DNA of 64,000 bases from a bacterium (GTDB lineage: Bacteria; SZUA-182; DTGQ01; JAFGSM01), in assembly GCA_049472315.1 (NCBI GenBank), contig JBLIRN010000001.1, positions 1 through 64,000 of the forward strand. Direction: 5' to 3'. The notes beneath the pieces are model-generated. The model had not been told where the DNA came from. It worked only from the letters and a program-made list of their open reading frames with translations, and searched no databases. Made by a program: the position numbers and the translations under genes. This document shows positions 40,742 through 52,811 of the stretch, one piece after another (position 1 is the stretch's first letter; the number at the start of each line of letters is the position of its first letter).

Positions 40742-43700
40742 TCAAGGCCTGCTCTGGGATGCCTCCTCGACCATTTGCAGGAATCCCCCCAATTTATCCC
40801 TGCGGTACCGCCTGAAGTATCCCTCTGCAATCTTCCGCAGCCAGGAGAGGTCCTCCCGGCTGGCCTGCGCATTGACAATGTCCTGGTACGCGGCAGCATT
40901 CTCCTCCCTGGCAAAGTGTGCAATGGCGGCAAGGGAGAGTGCGCGGGAATGCTGCGGCCCGTTGCGGAGCCTGTCGGCAATGGTGAGCACCCCTTCAAGT
41001 GAATCCCTGCGCAGTTCCAGGAAGGCCGTCCTTTGGTCTTCCAGCGCATCCCGGTCGGGCTCGTCGATATCGATGAGCCGGGTGCCCTGCACCTTCTGCG
41101 CCCAGTAGTCCCCTTCCGCGAACTCCCCCTTTCTGTCCACGGCAACGATCAACTCGAAGATGCTGTTGACATTCTTGGTGGCTTCAACGGTCTCCCGGCG
41201 GAAATTCACTGCCGTATCCAGATCGGGGGATGACATCTCCTCGAATATGCTTGCCAATTGAGAGGATGGCAATGGGGTTTGGGTGCGTTCTCCAGGAATA
41301 CGTGACAGATCGAGGGCCTCGCGCGCATACCTGCCCGCGTTGTCCCAGTCGGGCTCGGGCTGCCTGCTCAGGCAATTTGCAAGCTGGTAGAGGACCCTGG
41401 CCCGTTCGGCACGCTGCTCTGATACGGGGAGGAATTCAATGGCCTCCTGGTAGTGCTGAACGGCCTTGCGCCAATCGGGCTCGGGCTTGTTCTGACAGCA
41501 AAAGGCCAGGCTGCAGAGCGTGCGTGCGCGGTCCGCAGACAGCTCCTCCGGGGTCTGAAGATTCAGCGCCTGCTCATAATAGTGGATTGCCTGATCCCAG
41601 TCAGGCGCAGGTTTGTAGTGGGAACATAACCCCAGTTGGAAGAGGGTGAGGGCGCGTTCCGCCTTCTGATCCGGATTCGTCTGGAACGTCAGGGCCTCTT
41701 GGTAATGCTCTATTGCCTTGTCCCAATCGGGCTCGGGCTGATTGTGACATAACCATGCATACTGCATCAGGGAATCCAGGAGGTCTCCGGTCTCGTTGAG
41801 TCCCTTGAAGATCGCCACGGATTCCCGGGACGCCTTCAGCGCCCCTGCCCAGTCGGGCTCGGGTTTGTTGTGCAGGCAGGACGCCAGCCAGAAGAGGATC
41901 AACCCCTGATCCGCCTTTTCCCCCTGATCCTTGACGAGGTCCATCGCCTCCTGGTAGAGACGGATGGCCTCGGCCCAGTCCGGATCAGGCTTGTTATGGA
42001 GACAGTAGGCAAGCTGGTAGATACTGATTGCCAGATCGGAGCGGTGTTTCTCGCCCTGCTGGAGGTCCATCGCCTCCCGGTAGAGCTGGATGGCCTCGGC
42101 CCATTCCGGGTCGGGTTGATTATGCAGGCAATAGGCCAGAAGGTACAATGACCGTGCACGATCCGACTCCTGGTGAGGCTCACGCTGGAGTGCTATGATG
42201 TGCCGGAAGCTTTCGATGGCCTCTCCCCAGGCGGGGTCAGGTTGGTTGTAGCAGAGCCAGGCATGCTGAATGAGGGCGTCCAGCAACTCATGAGGTCTGT
42301 CAAGCCCTTTGAAGATCTCCACCGATTCGCGCGATGCATGTATCAATTCGAGCCAGTCCGGGTCAGGCAGGTTGTGAAGGCAATAGGCCATCCAATAATA
42401 CGCCCTGGCCCGCTCGAGTTGCTGCTCGGGCTCCATGAGGATCTCCAAGGCCGCTCGATAACAGTCAGCCGCCCGTGCAAGATCCGGCTGGGGTTGCGTA
42501 TGAAGGCATGAGGCCAAGTGAACGAGGGTGATCGCCCGGTCATTTCGCTTATCCGGACCCGCCTGGAGATCCAATGCCTGCTCATAGGAGGTAATGGCCA
42601 GGGGAAGGTCGGGTTGAAGCTTGTCGTGGAGGCACGTGGCCAGTTGAACGAGGGTGCGTGCCCGCTCGTCTATTTGTTCCGGATCCGTCAGCAGTTCCAG
42701 TGCCTCTCGATAACAGGCAATGGCCTCCTCCCAGTCCGGGTTTGGTTTGGTGTGAAAACATGTGGCAAGTTGCACAAGGGCACGGGCACGGTCATGGCTC
42801 TGCCCCGGTTCCTTCAAGAGTTCCAGCGCCTTGCGATAACAGGTAATCGCCCGTGACCAGTCGGGCTCCTCCTGGTTGTGGAAACAGAATCCCATCTGGT
42901 ACAAGGTGAGACCCCGGTGCGGCAGCTCGGGGTTCTCCGTCTGGAGTTCCAGGACCTTCATGAAACAGGCGATTGCCTCGGGCCACTCCGGCTCTGTCTG
43001 GCGATAGAGGCACAACCCCAATTGGTATATTGTGTGTGCCCGTTTCTCCAGATATTTGGGGTCGTCAAGAATCTCCAGCGCCTCCCGGTATGTCTCGATC
43101 GCCTCCGGCCAATCCGGATACTCCTGATTGTGACAGATCCACGCATATTGGATGAGCGCATCCAGGAACCCCTGGGTATCGGCGCGTGCCTTCATGATCG
43201 CGATCGTTTCCAGGGACGCGGTGATCGCCCCTGCCCAGTCCGGCTCGGGCTGGTTGTAGAGGCAATAGGCGAGGCGGTGGAGGGCCTGCGCCCGCTCTGC
43301 CTGGTGCTCGGGCCCGGTGAGGATATCGAGTGCCTCCCGGTAGTACCTGACCGCCTCGACCCAGTCGGGCTCGGGCTGGTTGTAAAGGCAATAGGCGAGG
43401 CGATAGAGTGATTGTGTCCGCTCCGTTTGATGCTCGGGTCCGATCAGGTGATCGAGTGCCTCCCGATAGGAGGCGATAGCCTCGCCCCACTCGGGCTGCG
43501 GCTGATTGAACAGGCAGTAGGCGAGTTGGCACAGGATCAATGCCCGTTCAAGCCCGTGCTCGGGATCGATGAAATATGTCAGGGCCTCGTGGTAGTGGGA
43601 GATGGCCTCGTTCCAATCGGGCTTGGGCTGATTGTGCAGGCAGTATGCCAACTGGCAAAGGGTTTGCGCCCTCTCCGCATATTCCCCGGTTATGGTGAAG

Positions 43701-46700
43701 AGCTCCAGGGCCTGGCGGTAGCAGGAGATGGCCTCGTTCCAATCGGGCCTGGGCTGGTTGTGCAGGCAGTATGCCAATTGGTACAGGGTCAGGGCGCGAT
43801 CGGTGTATTCCTCTGGTGCGGTGAAGAGTTCGAGTGCCCGGTGGTAGTGGGAGATGGCCTGATGCCAATCGGGCTTCGGTTGGTTGTGCAGGCAAAAGGC
43901 GAGTTGATAGTAGGTTTGTGCCCGATCCGCCCGTTCCTCGGGCGCAGTGAAGAGATCCAGTGTCTTGCGGTAACGGGAGATGGCCTGGTACCATTCAGGC
44001 ACCGGCTGGTTGTGCAGGCAATATGCCAATTGATAGAGGGCTTGTGCGCGGTCCGCCTGTTCATCCGGTTCGGTCAATAGCTCGAACGACTTTTCGTAGC
44101 AAGTGATGGCCCCTGCCCAGTCGGGCTGGAGTTGGCTATGGAGACAATAGGCAAGGCTGTAAAATATCTCCGCTCGTTCCTTGCGCTGCTTGGGGTCGGT
44201 CAACAGCTCCAAGGCGCCCTGGTAGCAGGTGATGGCCCCCGCCCAGTCGGGTTCGGGCTGATTATGGAGACAGTGGGCGAGTTGATGGAGGGCCTGGGCC
44301 CGATCGGTACGCTGGTGAAGACCGGTAAGGATTTTCAGCGCCTCCCGGTACAGGGCGATGGCCCCGGTCCAGTCAGGAGACGGTTGGGTATGGAGGCAGA
44401 GTGCGCATTGACATAGTGTCAGGGCATGGTCTTCCTCCAGTCCCAGTGCCTCTTGATAATTCAATGCCTCCCGGTAGTGGGTAACGGATTCCGCCCAATC
44501 GGGAGTGGGTTGATTGCAAAGACAGTATGCCAAAAGGTAGAGGATGAGTGCTCGATCGCCGTGATCTTCCGGGCTTGTGAGGAGCTTCAACGCCGCCCGG
44601 TAGGTGGAAATTGCCTCGTGCCAATCCGGATCGGGCTGCTGCTGACACAACCAGGCATACTGAACCATATGATCCAGAAGCTCGCGGGTGGTACCGTGCT
44701 CCTTGATGAGTTTGACAGACTCCCGGGACGCCTTGAACGCCTCCGTCCATTCAGGCTTCGGCTGCGTGTAGAGGCAAAAGGCCAGTTGGAAGAGTGTGCG
44801 GGCCCGGTCCGCCTGTTGTTCCGGATTACTCTGGAGTTTCAATGCCTCCCGGTAGCAGACGATCGCCTCGGCCCAATCGGGGTTTGACTGCATGCGGAGG
44901 CAATATGCCAGGAGGCAGAGACTCTCGATCTCCTTGGCGGTGTTTTTGAGCTTGCGGTATGTCCCGAGTGCATGACGCGCATGGTGGATGGCCTCCGAGA
45001 TCTCAATTTCCCCCAGGTTTGTCTTGGCCAGGGCCAGTGTCTTGTTCAGGTGTCCTACGTCTGAGTCGGCGCCGAGGAATTCGCAGGCGCTTTTTGCCTC
45101 ATGAAGAAACGACACGGCCTTTTTGATGTTCGGGGGGACGATATTGAGAAAAAGGTTGCCGAGGATTGCCTTTGCATACGCAGCATCCAGCGTCACCTTC
45201 TCCAGTTGCCCGGACTTTTCGATGGCGCGCCACAGGAGGTTGATGGTGTTTTCGCACCATTTTCCGGTCAATCGATTCGTGGCCAGTGCGATCTCGAAGA
45301 GGGCCTTTATCTCCTGTTCCCCGGAGGCGTACTCGAGCGCCCTTTCAGCGCACGGGACCGCAATCTCCTTTTGGTCGCATGCCTGGGCACATTCCGACAG
45401 GGAAAGCCAGAATGCGCACAGATGCTCGGGGGTTCCTTCTTCCCTTATGTGGCTCCAGTCCTCGAGGAAATCCTGGATTCCTTCCCATATTTCCTGTTTA
45501 AATGAGGAGGAAAGATTTCCCTGCGTGCGGATCTCCTCCCCCAACGGTCCGTACATGAAGACCCTTTTCTGATCTTCAGGGTCGTCAAGGAGTGCCAATG
45601 TCCTACGCAACGATTCAATGGTGGCGCCTGCAAGTTCCTCCCCGAATTGTTCGACCTTGGCGAGCACATATCGTAAAAGCTCCCAGGACGGACCCTTGAG
45701 GAAATCGGTAATGACGAGCGCCTTCAAGCCCGGGATGGTACGGGGAAGAACCGATTCTACCACCTCCTCAACGCCGATTGGTTCCTTCCGTATAAGGGAG
45801 GCATACCGTTCGGTTCCCTTGCCTGCGCGATTGGTGAGGAGGTCCCACATCTGGCAGAGATACCTGACCGGGACCAGGCCCATTGAAATGATCGCCTCAT
45901 TGATCTCGTCGATCCGACCCTCCTCGCCTCTGGCAACGAGTACCGGGCGAAGAACGGCATCGGTGAAAAACCGCACATCCTCCTCTCCCACCAGATCGCA
46001 GGCATTTCTTACTATTCCCCTTTTTTCCCATGGGTTTTCGCCCTTCGGGCAGATCTCATCGAATTCGGCGCACCGGGCTGCGCCCCATACCCTCCACTGG
46101 CGGGGGGAGCGCAGAAGTTCCTTGCATATGGCAAAGATCCCCGGCTCATGTACATCATCGATTACGATGATGGGCTGCGTCTCCTTCCCGATCACTCCCG
46201 CATGCTCGAGGCGCTGTAGGAGCCTTGACACGGCCCCTTCCACATCATCGATGGACATGCCCTTGCTGGTCTGCAGACGCACAATGGGCACTGCGCTCCC
46301 AAATCGTTTATGCGCCTCCAGAGAGATGAAGGTGAGGAGGCTCGTTTTTCCGCAAAACGGGGCACCGGTGAACAGGAGATCCCCTTTTGATGAAAGCCAT
46401 TCATCCAGGTGATTCACGATCTTGGGCAGGGGGATGAAGTGTCTTTGGATGTGCTCGGCTGTCCTGAGTTCGTGGAAGCAGGGTGATTTTTCTTCAGCGG
46501 GCACCTCTTCGGCATTCTCACGGGTGATGATGTGGAAGTCGATGTCTTCCTTCGGCAGGAACAGGTCCCTGATCCGTGTCGGATCTCCCTCCAGGGCGTC
46601 CTCGCGAAGCACAAACTGATCGATATGGTACATGACCTCGTAGGATTTTTGAACCAACCGCGGAGGCCGGGAGGGAAGCAACGGGATCGTATCCATTCGT

Positions 46701-47806
46701 GTTCGTTCCAGGCCACTGTGAATCGCATACATTGACGAACGAGTCCCTGCGTCCTCCGGCATCCCTGCGCCGATGCTGAGGGTGTCTCGAAGGTCGCGCA
46801 GCCATGCGACGTTCTTCAGCCGGTGTCGCCCCTGCTCGTCGACCTCTTCCTCCTTGGACCGGCACGGCACCCATGAACCATCCCCTGCTGGATCATATTC
46901 CCGGAGCCATATTATGCCCGTTCCCTCCTCCAGATTCAGCCGGACGACATTGTACCCCGATTTTTTGGGTGGATGGTGATAGCAGGTGCCCGCTGCGATG
47001 CGGGTGTGTTCGTTGCGCGGTGTCACCCAGCGCGTATGATCGTGGCCGTGGAGCAGGAATTTGAACTCCGACTCCAATCGTTGCAGGAAAAAGGGGCTCT
47101 CCTTCTTGGTAAACCAATCAACCGGATGGTGCATCAAGGCAATGGAAAAGTTGGCCTTGGGAAGCGTCGAGCGGAAGAAGTCCAGTTGCCGGTCGCCATC
47201 CAGCCAGAGCTTCCCCTTTTCTCTCTTTCCCTTGCCCGAGGAAGACCATGCGGAATTGAATCCGGCGATGGCGATCTTCACACCGTTGAATTCCCTGATG
47301 TCGGAGTAGATAACCCGGGATGGATCGTCAATGAGGTGGTCATAGCCGTATGCCTTGAGGAAGTCACGGTATTCGCGCAATTTTGTCACATATGAGCGCC
47401 AAAGGCTGTTGGGGTCGTGGATCATGTCGGTCAGTTTTCGAAGGTCTGCCTTTTCTCGAAGCCATAGGATGAGGGACTTGCTGTCCACCGTGAGGTTCAC
47501 ATCGTGATTCCCGGGGATGATGAAGATATTTCTCTTGGGAACACATTCCCCGAACGCAGTGCGGATGGTTTCCATGAATGCGGCAGCCTCCGCATACTGC
47601 TCAGGCATCGACCTCCCTTCCCCGACGGCAGGATTGCCGAATATGGCATCCCCGGTAAAGAATATCATGTCAGGGGCTATCTCATGTTCCCTCTTCAAGC
47701 GGTTAAGATCGTCGATCAACTTCTCCGTAACTTCATGGTAATCGCATTCATGTGCCGGATGGCAGACATGCAAATCAGAGATATGAAGCCACGTAATGGA
47801 AGTCAT
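40742..47806 (-). CDS. Giant multidomain protein: calcineurin-like metallophosphoesterase + P-loop NTPase + 29 x 42-aa TPR-like repeats
   Basis: SDLH/TGD/PGNHD/MHHP/HGHDH metal motifs; Walker A GAPFCGKT and Walker B IIVIDD; repeat consensus QLAYCLHNQPEPDW.EAI..YREAL.L; GGAGG RBS before ATG 47806. Confidence 0.85.
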   Translation of the reverse strand: MTSITWLHISDLHVCHPAHECDYHEVTEKLIDDLNRLKREHEIAPDMIFFTGDAIFGNPAVGEGRSMPEQYAEAAAFMETIRTAFGECVPKRNIFIIPGNHDVNLTVDSKSLILWLREKADLRKLTDMIHDPNSLWRSYVTKLREYRDFLKAYGYDHLIDDPSRVIYSDIREFNGVKIAIAGFNSAWSSSGKGKREKGKLWLDGDRQLDFFRSTLPKANFSIALMHHPVDWFTKKESPFFLQRLESEFKFLLHGHDHTRWVTPRNEHTRIAAGTCYHHPPKKSGYNVVRLNLEEGTGIIWLREYDPAGDGSWVPCRSKEEEVDEQGRHRLKNVAWLRDLRDTLSIGAGMPEDAGTRSSMYAIHSGLERTRMDTIPLLPSRPPRLVQKSYEVMYHIDQFVLREDALEGDPTRIRDLFLPKEDIDFHIITRENAEEVPAEEKSPCFHELRTAEHIQRHFIPLPKIVNHLDEWLSSKGDLLFTGAPFCGKTSLLTFISLEAHKRFGSAVPIVRLQTSKGMSIDDVEGAVSRLLQRLEHAGVIGKETQPIIVIDDVHEPGIFAICKELLRSPRQWRVWGAARCAEFDEICPKGENPWEKRGIVRNACDLVGEEDVRFFTDAVLRPVLVARGEEGRIDEINEAIISMGLVPVRYLCQMWDLLTNRAGKGTERYASLIRKEPIGVEEVVESVLPRTIPGLKALVITDFLKGPSWELLRYVLAKVEQFGEELAGATIESLRRTLALLDDPEDQKRVFMYGPLGEEIRTQGNLSSSFKQEIWEGIQDFLEDWSHIREEGTPEHLCAFWLSLSECAQACDQKEIAVPCAERALEYASGEQEIKALFEIALATNRLTGKWCENTINLLWRAIEKSGQLEKVTLDAAYAKAILGNLFLNIVPPNIKKAVSFLHEAKSACEFLGADSDVGHLNKTLALAKTNLGEIEISEAIHHARHALGTYRKLKNTAKEIESLCLLAYCLRMQSNPDWAEAIVCYREALKLQSNPEQQADRARTLFQLAFCLYTQPKPEWTEAFKASRESVKLIKEHGTTRELLDHMVQYAWLCQQQPDPDWHEAISTYRAALKLLTSPEDHGDRALILYLLAYCLCNQPTPDWAESVTHYREALNYQEALGLEEDHALTLCQCALCLHTQPSPDWTGAIALYREALKILTGLHQRTDRAQALHQLAHCLHNQPEPDWAGAITCYQGALELLTDPKQRKERAEIFYSLAYCLHSQLQPDWAGAITCYEKSFELLTEPDEQADRAQALYQLAYCLHNQPVPEWYQAISRYRKTLDLFTAPEERADRAQTYYQLAFCLHNQPKPDWHQAISHYHRALELFTAPEEYTDRALTLYQLAYCLHNQPRPDWNEAISCYRQALELFTITGEYAERAQTLCQLAYCLHNQPKPDWNEAISHYHEALTYFIDPEHGLERALILCQLAYCLFNQPQPEWGEAIASYREALDHLIGPEHQTERTQSLYRLAYCLYNQPEPDWVEAVRYYREALDILTGPEHQAERAQALHRLAYCLYNQPEPDWAGAITASLETIAIMKARADTQGFLDALIQYAWICHNQEYPDWPEAIETYREALEILDDPKYLEKRAHTIYQLGLCLYRQTEPEWPEAIACFMKVLELQTENPELPHRGLTLYQMGFCFHNQEEPDWSRAITCYRKALELLKEPGQSHDRARALVQLATCFHTKPNPDWEEAIACYREALELLTDPEQIDERARTLVQLATCLHDKLQPDLPLAITSYEQALDLQAGPDKRNDRAITLVHLASCLHTQPQPDLARAADCYRAALEILMEPEQQLERARAYYWMAYCLHNLPDPDWLELIHASRESVEIFKGLDRPHELLDALIQHAWLCYNQPDPAWGEAIESFRHIIALQREPHQESDRARSLYLLAYCLHNQPDPEWAEAIQLYREAMDLQQGEKHRSDLAISIYQLAYCLHNKPDPDWAEAIRLYQEAMDLVKDQGEKADQGLILFWLASCLHNKPEPDWAGALKASRESVAIFKGLNETGDLLDSLMQYAWLCHNQPEPDWDKAIEHYQEALTFQTNPDQKAERALTLFQLGLCSHYKPAPDWDQAIHYYEQALNLQTPEELSADRARTLCSLAFCCQNKPEPDWRKAVQHYQEAIEFLPVSEQRAERARVLYQLANCLSRQPEPDWDNAGRYAREALDLSRIPGERTQTPLPSSQLASIFEEMSSPDLDTAVNFRRETVEATKNVNSIFELIVAVDRKGEFAEGDYWAQKVQGTRLIDIDEPDRDALEDQRTAFLELRRDSLEGVLTIADRLRNGPQHSRALSLAAIAHFAREENAAAYQDIVNAQASREDLSWLRKIAEGYFRRYRRDKLGGFLQMVEEASQSRP
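41300..44925 (-). repeat. 126-bp (42-aa) coding repeat array, 29 units
   Basis: Counted 29 P(D/E/A)(W/L) motifs; neighbouring units are 126 bp apart (e.g. ~43613 and ~43739). Confidence 0.9.
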
Positions 47807-48078
47807 TGTTCTCAACCCTCCGACTTTCTACGGTGTCCCTTGCCAATGCGCATCCCCATGATCATCAAGACCGGTCAATCCCTGATGAGCCCTCATTATG
47901 TACGAGAATCATGTGCATTTATATACCACCCCCCTTTGCAAGGTCAAGGGATTATCTAAATTGCAGGTTGCTAAAGAGAAAAGGATCGCCGATTCCGGAG
48001 GGAAAAAGTGTTGCTTCCGATGCCGTGAAAATGGTTGGATGCAATGTCAAAATGAGAATTGCCGGTTTGAGGTGGATT

Positions 48079-49587
48079 CTACTGACAGGTCTCCAAGATC
48101 CCTCTGAGGTAGTTTTCCGTAACCTTCGGCATGGAGGTGAAATGGACCAGAAATGTCCCCTCCCCCTGGCCCACCACCTTTGCGTAGAGGTCGATGGGTA
48201 TGTCTTCATCGTTTTGGCCGACCAGCAGAAATTTTACATCGCTGAGCTCGTCCACCTTTGTCTGGGACTTGACCAAGGCCTTGGTTGGGGAAAGCCTCAG
48301 GATGCTTCCCGTGTATGCTGAACTGTCAGCCACCTTGCCCTTGACCAGGACGAATTTAACAGGGATCTCCTTCTGGAGCATCAGGAGCTCTTCGGTGAAG
48401 CACTCGGGAAGGTAGAGGGCATAGTCGCCCCCCAATCCGAGCACCTCGAATACGGTGATGGGCTCGTCGATCCCCTTCGTCTCCACCTCCATCTGCCTGC
48501 CCAGTTTGAGGATATCCCCGATATCGTACCTGGTGCTTTCAGAGATCAGGATCTGCCCGCCGATGGTAAGGGATTCTATGCGAGATGCGAGGTTCACATT
48601 CCTTCCCACCACCCCGTATTTTACCCGTTTTACCGAGCCGATGTTCCCGACGATGACCTCCCCGGTGTTGATGCCGATCCCCATATTCAGCCTGGGCAGC
48701 CCTTCATTCCTGTTTCGCTCGTTTACCTCATCCATGGCAAGTTGCATCTCGACGGCGCACGCCACCGCACTGGCCGCATCATCATCCATGGTGGTGGGCG
48801 CCCCGAAGACAGAGAGGATGGCGTCACCGATAAACTCCACAATGGTGCCGTGGTACTTGAAGATGATGGTGGTCATGGTCTCCAGGTAGTTGTTGATGGT
48901 GGTCATGACCTGTTCCGGCTGTAATTTCTCACTAATGGAGGTGAATCCCCGCAGATCGGACATCATGATGGTCACCTTCCGCTTTTCTCCTCCCAGGTGG
49001 AGTCCTTCGGGGGTTTCCAGCAACTGGTTCACCACCTCGTCCGAGAGATACCGTCCGAAGGTCTTCATGATGAAACGATTGCGGAGCTCCAGCCTGCGCT
49101 GGCTCTCCACCAATGCCCGGTATGCCTCGTTGCGCTGCAGGAGGTTGATATAGCTTTTGGAATGGTGACGGATGCGGGCGACCAGCTCCATGGTGTCGGG
49201 GAATTTCACCATAAAGTCATTGGCGCCCGTTTCGAACGCCTTGGCCTTGATTTGCGGGTCCTCCTCGGCGGAGAGCACGATCATGGGCACGTCCCTGGTG
49301 ACCTCGTTTTCCCGCAGCTTCTTGACCATGGTGAGGCCGTCGATTCCGGGCATGACCAGATCCTGGAGGATGACGGTGGGCCTTACCCGCTCGGCGACCG
49401 CTTCCTCCTCCTCGGGATCGGTGCAGTAGTGAAAGGTGATGTCCTTTTCTTCGGAAAGGATTTCACTGATCGCCTCGCACACCGTTGGGGAGTCGTCGAC
49501 CAGAAGGACGGTAATGGTGTATTCGGTGATGGACTCCTCGACGAATGCACCTTTCAGGCTCTCAAACAGCGACTCTCTAAAGCTCAT
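48079..49587 (-). CDS. Response regulator (WspR-like REC and stalk) fused to a class III nucleotidyl cyclase with guanylyl-type signature, plus C-terminal beta domain
   Basis: LLVDD...PTVILQDLVMPG...ELVARIR.HS.SY..LLQR.EAYRAL; cyclase SDLRGFT, EFIGD, KYGVVG.NVNLASR. Confidence 0.85.
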   Translation of the reverse strand: MSFRESLFESLKGAFVEESITEYTITVLLVDDSPTVCEAISEILSEEKDITFHYCTDPEEEEAVAERVRPTVILQDLVMPGIDGLTMVKKLRENEVTRDVPMIVLSAEEDPQIKAKAFETGANDFMVKFPDTMELVARIRHHSKSYINLLQRNEAYRALVESQRRLELRNRFIMKTFGRYLSDEVVNQLLETPEGLHLGGEKRKVTIMMSDLRGFTSISEKLQPEQVMTTINNYLETMTTIIFKYHGTIVEFIGDAILSVFGAPTTMDDDAASAVACAVEMQLAMDEVNERNRNEGLPRLNMGIGINTGEVIVGNIGSVKRVKYGVVGRNVNLASRIESLTIGGQILISESTRYDIGDILKLGRQMEVETKGIDEPITVFEVLGLGGDYALYLPECFTEELLMLQKEIPVKFVLVKGKVADSSAYTGSILRLSPTKALVKSQTKVDELSDVKFLLVGQNDEDIPIDLYAKVVGQGEGTFLVHFTSMPKVTENYLRGILETCQ

Positions 49588-50450: not shown

Positions 50451-51572
50451 TCAGCTCCCGTTAAGCAGTCCCTGTGGGCTCACCCGCTCCTTAATGCCTT
50501 CCGCGATGACCAGGTTTTTCCCGATGCGTTTCCCCTCCTTCAACACGGCCTCGTCACGGGTATGTATCCGCCTGCTGAAGGTTCGGGTAGTGGGGTAGCG
50601 AACGCGGCAGTAGGCTACCAGCAGCGGGTCCTCCCTCCGTATCAGGCCGGGCTTCGTTCGATGCGGACGTTTTAATCCCTTACGGGCTGAAAGGCGGGCG
50701 CGAAATCCCTCCAGGACGCCCACGGCAAAGTCAATGCTCCTTGCATGGTTCACACCCTGTTTTCTCGTATATTCCCTCCACCTGGCGTCAATGAAATGAC
50801 GGACGAAATCGTACACATAGGATGCCATGTGGGTGTTCTTCAACGTTCCGCTGATCTCGAGGGCCCGACCCATTTTCCCCTTTCCCAGCACATAGGCGGG
50901 CACCCAGATCCCATTGACGAAATAGAATTCCTGAAGGATGCGGGCAAGGAGATAATCCGCCCGGCTGTGACGGAGTGCGGGCTCCCCGACAAAGATGCTC
51001 ACGAAATGCCGCGCTCCGTCATGGAGCACATGCCCCAGGTTGTACCGCGCGATGAGCTCATGGGCCTTTGCAAGGGCCGCCTCAGCCTCGTGGGGGTTCC
51101 CGCTTTCGGCAAGGGCCAGGAGTTTTTTCACCTTCACCAGGAACCGGTCTTCCTCGCAGGCCATGGTGCTCAGGACACGCTCGCGCAACGGGGGGTAGTT
51201 CCCGGAGGCCTTCGGATTTGCCCTGAGCAGATGACATGCCTGTTGAAAGCACGGGCCGTGGGGAGGCTCGTTGAATGCGCCGAGCACCTCATCCGCATAT
51301 TGATGGGCCATTTCGTGGTGGAGCACCTCCCGGACCGAATCCCAGGGGTGGTGCAGCACCAGTTTCCTGCTCAGGGAGATCTCACGGCGTTCCCTTGACC
51401 AGTCCCCCCAGGCACCTTCCCTGTCGGTGAGGCTGAACAGGGGCATGCGTATATGATTCCGTTCATGAGGATCAAGAAAGGCGAGGGCGGTGTTCCATTC
51501 GCAGGCGATCCCATGGAGTATTCGTCGCTCCAATTCCCCCCGGATGAGTTTGTGCTGCATGCGTATTTCCAT
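50451..51572 (-). CDS. SprT-like metalloprotease domain + DUF2786-like domain protein
   Basis: HHEMAH zincin motif then PHGPCF; KVKKLLALAES.NPHEAEAAL.KA.ELIARYNL. Confidence 0.78.
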   Translation of the reverse strand: MEIRMQHKLIRGELERRILHGIACEWNTALAFLDPHERNHIRMPLFSLTDREGAWGDWSRERREISLSRKLVLHHPWDSVREVLHHEMAHQYADEVLGAFNEPPHGPCFQQACHLLRANPKASGNYPPLRERVLSTMACEEDRFLVKVKKLLALAESGNPHEAEAALAKAHELIARYNLGHVLHDGARHFVSIFVGEPALRHSRADYLLARILQEFYFVNGIWVPAYVLGKGKMGRALEISGTLKNTHMASYVYDFVRHFIDARWREYTRKQGVNHARSIDFAVGVLEGFRARLSARKGLKRPHRTKPGLIRREDPLLVAYCRVRYPTTRTFSRRIHTRDEAVLKEGKRIGKNLVIAEGIKERVSPQGLLNGS

Positions 51573-51758
51573 GGGAAATCGATTATACCAGAGTAATGCC
51601 CGCTGGTCTAACAGGGTGCCGCGGTGCAAGGGATTCTCGTTTTGGCATTGTGTCGTAGCAAACATGCCTGCTCATATACCCATCGTGGTGATTCAGAATA
51701 AGAACTGCCGCGGCGAATGGTGGTGCGGCATGACGGGTCCGTTGCGGGAACCAGGGTA

Positions 51759-52595
51759 TCAGATCTCGATGGTGAGCCCCTCGTAGGCTGCGGTGCATTG
51801 AATGGAGAGGTTGTGTTGTGCGAACCATGCGCGCACCCCATCCTGTATGGCATCGATCTCCTCATCGGTGCGGTCCGGATCGTGGTGGGTGAGCACCAGG
51901 TGTTTTACCTCCGCTTCGGCAGCCAACTGCCGCACCTGGCTTACCAGGCTGTGCCCCCATCCGTGTTTTTGCGGCATGTCCTTCTCGATGTACTGGGCGT
52001 CGTGGATGAGCAGGTCCGCATGTCTGCAGAAGTGCACGAACCCTTCGAATTCCGTGGTTTTTTTGTGGGGGGGATCGAGTTCGTTGTCGGTGAGGTAGAT
52101 AACGGAGTGACCGTTTTTTTCGATACGGTAGCCATAGCCGCCGCCCGGGTGGTTGGTGGCGATGCGTGAAACCCTGAAGCCATAGTGATCGAGGAACGTG
52201 GAAACATCCTCGTTGATGCACTGATGCACGGACGGCAGGCTCTGCGGCTCCACCGGGAAGTGTGCGCCGTCCATCTGGTTGATAAGCGAGCATATCATGC
52301 TCTTTCCCTCTTCGTTCGACAGGATGTTTACGATTCGGTTTGTTTCGTAGATGGGCCAAAAGAAGGGGAATCCCTGGATATGGTCCCAGTGCCTGTGCGA
52401 CAAGAGGAGGAAGATCTCCTCACTGCCCCCGGCGAGTGCCTTTCCCAGCTCTCGGATGCCGGTCCCCGCATCCAGGACCAAAATTTTATCGGAGGCGGTG
52501 TGGATGCTCACACAGGAGGTATTCCCCCCGTACCGGATGGTATTCCTGCTCGGGCTGGGAATCGAACCCCTCACTCCCCAGAATGTCACTTTCAT
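51759..52595 (-). CDS. MBL-fold metallo-hydrolase (RNase Z/phosphodiesterase-like)
   Basis: FWGVRGSIP, GGNTSCV, DAGTG, SHRHWDHIQG, TDNE, HDAQY, GHS, HHDP. Confidence 0.85.
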   Translation of the reverse strand: MKVTFWGVRGSIPSPSRNTIRYGGNTSCVSIHTASDKILVLDAGTGIRELGKALAGGSEEIFLLLSHRHWDHIQGFPFFWPIYETNRIVNILSNEEGKSMICSLINQMDGAHFPVEPQSLPSVHQCINEDVSTFLDHYGFRVSRIATNHPGGGYGYRIEKNGHSVIYLTDNELDPPHKKTTEFEGFVHFCRHADLLIHDAQYIEKDMPQKHGWGHSLVSQVRQLAAEAEVKHLVLTHHDPDRTDEEIDAIQDGVRAWFAQHNLSIQCTAAYEGLTIEI

Positions 52596-52811
52596 CAGCG
52601 GATGCATGGTACCCCGCACAAAGAAGTAAAAAAATATACAATACTACTATATGTTATCGGCTGAGACGAGCGAGAAGTTTAGGAAACCCTGCAGGGTGCG
52701 CATGGAGCGTTCCAAAAACCGCACAGGAAAACGTCACAAGCACCGCAATTATACGCGGCAGTGCCCTGTTTTTCAATGAAATCGAAAAATCCTTCCCATC
52801 GCGTGGAGCAG

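Follow-up and report, generated by a model that had tools for sequence, protein, structure and literature searches.

A WspR-type receiver on a Cya2-type cyclase with a PilZ-fold tail: a probable cGMP-producing response regulator in a genome in which no Wsp genes were found

Signalling through cGMP is represented in bacteria by few proven enzymes, and fewer inputs to them are known. Rhodospirillum centenum is said to have a cGMP/CgrA cyst pathway and a chemosensory-like system, Che3, that controls the same developmental process, the cyclase reportedly not being itself a response regulator of the chemosensory kinase. The full-length cyclase Cya2 is GTP-specific, and, as reported by Etzl et al. 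2018 (PMC5995499), fusions with full-length Cya2 convert the other nucleotide to a minor extent only. According to the same source, the E488K variant of Cya2 is an adenylyl cyclase, the transducer element contains an FGRY motif, and a C-terminal extension of 118 amino acids, the removal of which nearly abolishes activity, could not be crystallised. ATP and GTP are bound about equally by Cya2, and the selection takes place by turnover (PMC4284465, PMC4215837). Its active site is tabulated as Asp448, Arg450, Glu488, Asp492, Gly562, Asn569, Arg573, and Lys608, with a supporting Lys and Tyr also named (PMC6005667). A mononucleotidyl cyclase has been listed among the regulator outputs of ACF systems (Munoz-Martinez et al. 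2012, PMC3447774), and Table S2 of that work contains the description “REC - CHD mononucleotidyl cyclase” once, for the delta proteobacterium NaphS2. All component parts of the protein described below are already known, and output swapping of the Wsp type is documented. A literature search, in which subscription journals were thinly covered, retrieved no account of a Wsp-linked guanylyl cyclase.

The gene studied here is located in a window of 64,000 nucleotides, which is the whole stretch of DNA that was analysed (GenBank assembly GCA_049472315.1, contig JBLIRN010000001.1, positions 1 to 64,000). The open reading frame of its product, here called the receiver-cyclase, and all motifs quoted for it in the first-pass annotation were recovered, and the domain layout is given in Table 1. 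In a Pfam scan, the protein matched Response_reg over residues 27-140 (E 9e-21) and Guanylate_cyc over residues 202-354 (E 3e-31), with a match to PilZ over residues 421-498 below the cut-off (E 0.03). The closest solved structures by sequence in a PDB search are a Cya2-based fusion (6fht), Cya2 (2w01), and WspR (3bre and 3i5a). The match to 2w01 (E 4e-61) has 107 identities over the 196 residues from 198 to 393, and the match to 3bre (E 7e-51) has 84 identities over the 151 residues from 24 to 174, both counted from the alignments. The AlphaFold model, with a mean pLDDT of 81, consists of a receiver, a single long helix (residues 132-177), a cyclase, and a beta-rich tail, and the modelled cyclase superimposes on 2w01 with a TM of 0.94 and an rmsd of 1.8. 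None of the domain, motif, and fold matches is at chance level. Promoter and terminator scans at the gene gave results at chance level. The G+C content of the gene (0.56) is close to the values for the neighbouring genes (0.57-0.64) and for the whole genome (0.54), and for this reason there is no sign of a recent transfer.

Table 1. Features of the receiver-cyclase gene, with positions in the window
Feature	Residues	Positions	Strand	Basis or key residues
Whole gene: WspR-type receiver, stalk, cyclase transducer element, Cya2-type cyclase, PilZ-fold tail	502 aa	48079..49587	(-)	
WspR-clade receiver domain	24-146	49150..49518	(-)	PDB sequence match and receiver trees
Start of receiver helix 1, presumed kinase-docking face	33-42	49462..49491	(-)	Lineage-specific Q33S, R41S/N, R42E
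WspR-like helical stalk	147-173	49069..49149	(-)	Likeness to WspR ends near WspR Leu167/Leu170
Cyclase transducer element with FGRY motif	174-197	48997..49068	(-)	Match to 6fht from residue 173
Class III cyclase core, Cya2 type	198-393	48409..48996	(-)	Asp211, Arg213, Glu251, Asp255, Lys323, Tyr324, Gly325, Asn332, Arg336, Lys371
PilZ-fold C-terminal domain, without c-di-GMP motifs	394-502	48082..48408	(-)	

The N-terminus had been assigned to the receiver and stalk of WspR on first inspection, and the phylogenies agree with the sequence match in this respect. In the more careful of two receiver trees, with 43 rows that included 11 of the 51 other receiver domains of the genome, the query was placed inside a WspR clade of 29 rows with a support of 100/100, together with WspR from the wsp operons of Azoarcus and Cupriavidus. 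When all 51 other receiver domains were included in a quick tree, which was without the Azoarcus WspR row, the same split was obtained, and here the receiver-cyclase is the sole WspR-type receiver in its genome. The receiver pocket is intact (Asp31, Asp32, Asp76, Ser106, and Lys128), and Asp76 is the equivalent of WspR Asp70 (PMC3663191). The similarity to WspR stops at the tip of the stalk, where the FGRY transducer element starts. Receivers of the WspR clade also carry GGDEF, PP2C, histidine kinase, and adenylyl-type cyclase outputs, and because so many output types occur in the clade, its receiver can be regarded as a modular Wsp-type input. A large family of proteins (P0121-P0229) contains WspR-type receivers fused to a histidine kinase, more receivers, and Hpt.

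All eight tabulated residues of the Cya2 active site align without gaps, and with a single offset of 237, to the residues listed for the cyclase core in Table 1, and Lys323-Tyr324 are placed directly before Gly325, as in 2w01. The residue set of the Cya2 type is complete in the receiver-cyclase, comprising the Glu/Gly pair, the supporting Lys and Tyr, and the catalytic set of Asp, Asp, Arg, Asn, Arg, and Lys. Glu251 is encoded at positions 48835-48837 and Lys323-Tyr324-Gly325 at positions 48613-48621. Glu251, Lys323, and Tyr324 are present in all of the best 120 homologs, and Gly325 in 115 of them. By length, 35 of these 120 homologs (P0005-P0027 and others, 726-826 aa) were counted as having two or three receivers before the same cyclase. 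The Glu/Gly pair was found in none of the six other cyclase domains of the genome. The gap-free mapping of the eight residues, including the GTP-selecting Glu/Gly pair, points to cGMP as the likely product. The alignment with Cya2 thus confirms a class III cyclase with the Glu/Gly/Lys/Tyr signature, for which a preference for GTP, as proposed in the first-pass annotation, can be predicted with considerable confidence.

An adenylyl or dual-substrate cyclase with cAMP as its output is improbable in comparison. Homologs are labelled “adenylate cyclase” in databases, and some cAMP output would be possible because Cya2 binds both substrates about equally (PMC4284465, PMC4215837). However, Glu, Gly, Lys, and Tyr are all as in Cya2, which needs the E488K exchange to produce cAMP, and the adenylyl cyclase CyaB, which has Lys/Thr instead, gave a far weaker match (E 9e-39). 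A fusion of the adenylyl type is found in a cyanobacterial wsp cluster (L035:9938-11107), which ends in a WspR-type receiver followed by a Lys/Asp cyclase without the tail. Since this cluster ends in such a fusion, there are probably Wsp-type systems with cAMP as their output.

For the last hundred residues or so, a PilZ-type barrel without the RxxxR motif had been suggested, and both parts of this suggestion were recovered. The model of the tail (residues 394-502), based on an alignment of 126 rows, has a pLDDT of 84, and a fold search with this model returned PilZ structures first (4i86, E 6e-5), and also Alg44, MapZ, BcsA, and YcgR. The PilZ structures were reached by the fold search only, a search of the tail profile against PDB sequences giving nothing significant. 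Pfam PilZ was matched at E <= 0.05 in 40 of the 126 tail members, with a best E of 8e-12. PilZ domains that bind c-di-GMP contain the motifs RxxxR and D/NxSxxG. Both motifs, the former of which belongs to the linker, are absent from the query tail, and among the 126 aligned tails they are present in three and seven members, respectively. A role of the tail as a c-di-GMP sensor was ruled out by the absence of these motifs. Likewise, the tail could be ruled out as a new add-on, as it was found with 195 of 200 Glu/Gly cyclase domains versus 4 of 37 Lys-type domains among 297 collected domains, a sample picked by likeness to the query and therefore biased towards it. The tail profile matches cyanobacterial cyclases of 730-790 aa, and the single one that was scanned (L031) contains a CHASE2 domain like Cya2. 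Judged by size, position, and these cyanobacterial relatives, the PilZ-fold tail is most likely the counterpart of the native, activity-stimulating C-terminal extension of Cya2. No publication linking Cya2 to PilZ was found in the literature search.

To place the family in its genomic context, we compared 25 distinct loci at which a Cya2-type cyclase is fused to a WspR-type receiver, with duplicates counted once. Nine of these loci are inside wsp clusters, one (L075) is cut by the end of its contig, and 15 are orphans, of which four are from the genus of the window, seven from the order of G042, and four from metagenome contigs. Three of the nine (L067, L214, and L221) have the cyclase gene directly after wspF, at the position of wspR, and six of the nine belong to the Moduliflexota, where the gene is located behind a receiver-GGDEF WspR in six of nine genomes. 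At L221 (12991-14504, genome G348), the gene is split into frames of 393 and 123 aa at the start of the tail, which may be an assembly error, since cheA is split as well. The receptors of the wsp clusters with family members vary (4HB, dCache, or unassigned).

Among the 55 genomes in the order of G042, 30 were matched at E <= 1e-110 and nine at E <= 1.3e-203; these nine have the WspR-type receiver, and the next-best matches that were scored are without it. The genomes in which a WspD-type CheW was detected are precisely the nine with the cyclase, all of which are kin and not independent cases. For the seven orphans of this order, no response regulator gene was found after the wsp genes, in clusters several of which are partial. 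In the Cyanobacteria, 41 of 251 genomes were matched at E <= 1e-110, nearly all of them across the cyclase and the tail only, and the sole match that reached a receiver (G200) is not of the WspR type. None of the 251 genomes in the phylum of G351 was matched at E <= 1e-150, with six candidates scored per genome, and the class of G032 was represented by two genomes only. The contexts give us high confidence that the receiver-cyclase family is an output of Wsp systems in other lineages. In this sense, the link to Wsp-type systems that the first-pass annotation had envisaged is supported by the relatives at the wspR position.

The wsp clusters of the Moduliflexota (L024 and L232-L236) encode up to three chemoreceptors, followed by a receiver-GGDEF WspR, the receiver-cyclase, and a cNMP-binding protein of 141 aa with Arg-Thr in its phosphate-binding cassette. 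This stand-alone gene adjoins the cyclase in all six Moduliflexota loci. In PKG, the Thr at the equivalent position favours cGMP, although the preference of the isolated domain is only two-fold (PMC3080414). Directly after orphan cyclases, we observed genes for an Apyc1-like hydrolase (L219:4299-5084) and for cNMP-binding proteins without the cassette Arg (L217:4164-4682 and L218:5301-5819). The genome of the window contains ten cNMP-binding domains, which are possible candidates for cGMP readers, none of them tied to the receiver-cyclase gene, and its stand-alone cNMP-binding proteins gave no match to that of the Moduliflexota.

In its own genome (G000), the receiver-cyclase is found in a different setting. 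The genome is 97.6% complete in 101 contigs, and neither scans for the CheW, MCP, and Hpt families nor tblastn searches with Wsp-type proteins identified wspA-F, the search for which turned up only a distant ACF-type cluster and a second CheA. Wsp-type genes were not found in the four genus relatives (G001-G004) either. A WspD-type CheW gave no match in the genome or in 19 relatives of the same class, and one of 41 genomes (G032) was positive. No WspE-type kinase was found in the genome, whose best CheA shares 27-33% identity with kinases of the WspE type, these being 42-58% identical to each other. Of the five genus genomes, four were found to contain the receiver-cyclase itself, which was detected in none of the 36 other sampled genomes. 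The proposed Wsp-type pathway is consequently not supported for this genome, in which no WspD-type CheW and no WspE-type kinase were found, and surface sensing in this organism is unsupported, as receptors of related clusters vary and a dCache domain is present in the resident one. A genuine Wsp surface-sensing pathway, with wspA-F missing from the assembly, would fit the 101 contigs and the pairing of the cyclase with Wsp genes in all nine cases from the order of G042. It is extremely unlikely, given the completeness of the genome, the lack of a WspD-type match in four further genus genomes and in all others sampled from the class with a query that does find its target in G032, the low identity of the best CheA to WspE-type kinases, and the changed docking face.

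The changes in the docking face were identified by comparing 229 distinct WspR-type receivers, in which P0002-P0004 were put in the query lineage by 74-76% identity and not by taxonomy. All six sequences of the lineage are altered at Gln33, Arg41, Arg42, Ala61, Tyr125, and Leu129, which are kept in 218, 200, 204, 221, 221, and 199 of the 223 other receivers, respectively. As many as 187 of the 229 receivers are unchanged at all six positions, and no row from outside the lineage is changed at more than four. Positions 33-42 correspond in the model to the start of helix 1 and residues within it, and position 129 to the beta5-alpha5 loop. Kinase specificity is set by helix 1 and the beta5-alpha5 loop in OmpR, and by helix 1 in chemotaxis regulators (PMC2991266). 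Because the six positions were chosen for this contrast, they show that the lineage has diverged and not why. Taken together, the changed docking face and the missing Wsp genes suggest a different phosphodonor, and it is very likely that the donor here is not a Wsp kinase. The gene would then be an orphan, the docking face of which changed after it lost or left Wsp.

The same changes at six near-invariant positions, the lack of a detected cognate Wsp kinase, and the long branch of the query lineage (0.64 in the careful tree) could also mean that switching of the receiver in vivo has been lost, and that the protein is a constitutive or small-molecule-phosphorylated source of cGMP, or a relic after Wsp loss. 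This is quite unlikely, as Asp31, Asp32, Asp76, Ser106, and Lys128 are all intact, and the higher identity within the lineage of the receiver (80-82%) than of the tail (59-67%) fits continued selection on the receiver.

Because no Wsp genes were found in the genome, another kinase is the probable switch here. An ACF-type cluster with the order cheW-cheR(TPR)-cheW-MCP-Hpt-cheA(REC)-cheB is located on contig 1 of G000 (168663-177135; L017:7664-16136), 119 kb from the receiver-cyclase, with the CheA-REC gene at 169.8-172.2 kb and, preceding cheA, an additional gene for a stand-alone Hpt. In G000, G001, and G002, cheB is followed by an HdrA-like gene of a hydrogenase-type block and no regulator gene; in G003 and G004, it is followed by a gene for a 271-aa receiver protein, of which no full-length counterpart was found in the genome of the window. 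G004 contains both the cyclase and the 271-aa regulator, so the cyclase did not simply replace the regulator next to cheB. G003, which is 63% complete, contains the cluster, and no cyclase was found in it. The receivers of the resident cluster and the receiver-cyclase have an Asp/Glu-Asp-Ser motif in common, which does not identify the donor because the receiver of WspE itself also has it. A second CheA with CheW genes is located on contig 78 of G000 (L018); no flagellin was found in the genome.

The chances that the resident CheA-REC, rather than another kinase, is the donor appear about even. The same phospho-activated guanylyl cyclase might instead receive its phosphate from the contig-78 CheA, a contig-27 Hpt hybrid, a stand-alone Hpt, or an ordinary histidine kinase, which we regard as rather unlikely. 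The genome has four Hpt domains, three of them besides that of the resident cluster, and many receiver proteins, and the gene is an orphan. Furthermore, relatives are located directly behind genes for hybrid histidine kinases in G301, G302, and G303, and the resident cluster of G004 keeps a regulator of its own. However, no kinase gene adjoins the cyclase in any of the four genus genomes that have it, the history of the family is one of CheA-type donors, and three of these four genomes have a resident cluster without a regulator.

Our preferred reading, which we give an even chance as a whole, is that of a WspR-type regulator with a Cya2-type cyclase output, in which phosphorylation of Asp76 would lead to a likely cGMP product, and the donor in this genome would probably be the resident non-Wsp CheA-REC. 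A signal would cause a kinase to place phosphate on Asp76, and by analogy with the biochemistry of WspR and Cya2, phosphorylation may re-pack the receiver/stalk dimer. The stalk helix, which would run straight into the FGRY element, may drive this element and thereby close the cyclase homodimer, which in its closed form would turn GTP into cGMP. The PilZ-fold tail, by analogy with the Cya2 extension, would stimulate catalysis and not read c-di-GMP. Activation of the receiver-cyclase by phosphorylation is, from the same analogies, likely.

The neighbouring genes in the window include, directly downstream of the cyclase (40742-47815, minus strand), a gene for a 2357-aa metallophosphoesterase, P-loop, TPR-repeat protein, which matches the DS-8 anti-phage model weakly (106 bits; cut-off 790) and accompanies the cyclase in L021, L022, and L023 but at none of the loci from other lineages. 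Two genes are located on the upstream side of the cyclase in the lineage, a conserved one for a SprT-like / DUF2786 / DUF7168 protein (50451-51665, minus strand) and one for a metallo-beta-lactamase-fold hydrolase (51759-52619, minus strand). The latter matches a cyclic-nucleotide phosphodiesterase model weakly (42 bits; cut-off 400), and in L053, L055, and L057 its relatives at 35% identity are found next to different class III cyclases. This hydrolase is a candidate for a cGMP-degrading partner.

The broader picture is tentative and, with all of its parts taken together, somewhat short of probable: a widespread branch of Wsp may use cGMP as its signal, either in place of c-di-GMP or alongside it, and may have a dedicated cGMP reader in the Moduliflexota; in the lineage studied here, changes in the docking helix may have connected the cGMP output to a chemosensory kinase unrelated to Wsp; and the activating tail of the Cya2 type may be a PilZ barrel without a ligand. 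If this is true, the Wsp architecture is able to output cGMP, and the family supplies a candidate soluble guanylyl cyclase with a defined on-switch, Asp76. The stand-alone cNMP-binding gene with the cGMP-favouring Arg-Thr in the Moduliflexota loci would be a candidate cGMP reader, and PilZ would be the fold of the Cya2 extension that optogenetic engineers needed yet could not crystallise. The genome of the window contributes a naturally occurring example in which the link to the kinase was likely re-wired.

Among the known systems, the receiver-cyclase can be compared with the ACF-class chemosensory systems and their varied multidomain response regulators, and WspR-type receivers likewise carry GGDEF, PP2C, and kinase outputs. 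The NaphS2 case can be likened to it by domain description only, as the account in PMC3447774, as far as its listing goes, gives no substrate, WspR clade, or family for this protein. Cya2 of Synechocystis sp. PCC 6803 (2w01; engineered fusion 6fht) is 54-55% identical in the cyclase core, with the TM given above, and the likeness extends to the Glu/Gly/Lys/Tyr set, the FGRY element, and a C-terminal extension that is comparable in size and location. Unlike the receiver-cyclase, which is soluble and has a receiver as its input, Cya2 is membrane-bound and carries a CHASE2 sensor. WspR of Pseudomonas aeruginosa (PA3702; 3bre and 3i5a), the output of the Wsp system, is about 56% identical over the receiver and stalk and belongs to the same clade, the phosphoacceptor Asp is conserved, and relatives of the receiver-cyclase occupy the wspR position. 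WspR acts via a GGDEF domain, whereas the receiver-cyclase acts via a class III mononucleotide cyclase and, having no GGDEF domain, is without the c-di-GMP inhibitory site. It also differs from WspR in that the tip of the stalk is replaced by the FGRY transducer element, helix 1 has diverged, and the genome is one in which no Wsp genes were found. The receiver-cyclase is WspR-like on the input side and Cya2-like on the output side; it is not a WspR, and here it is not part of a Wsp system.
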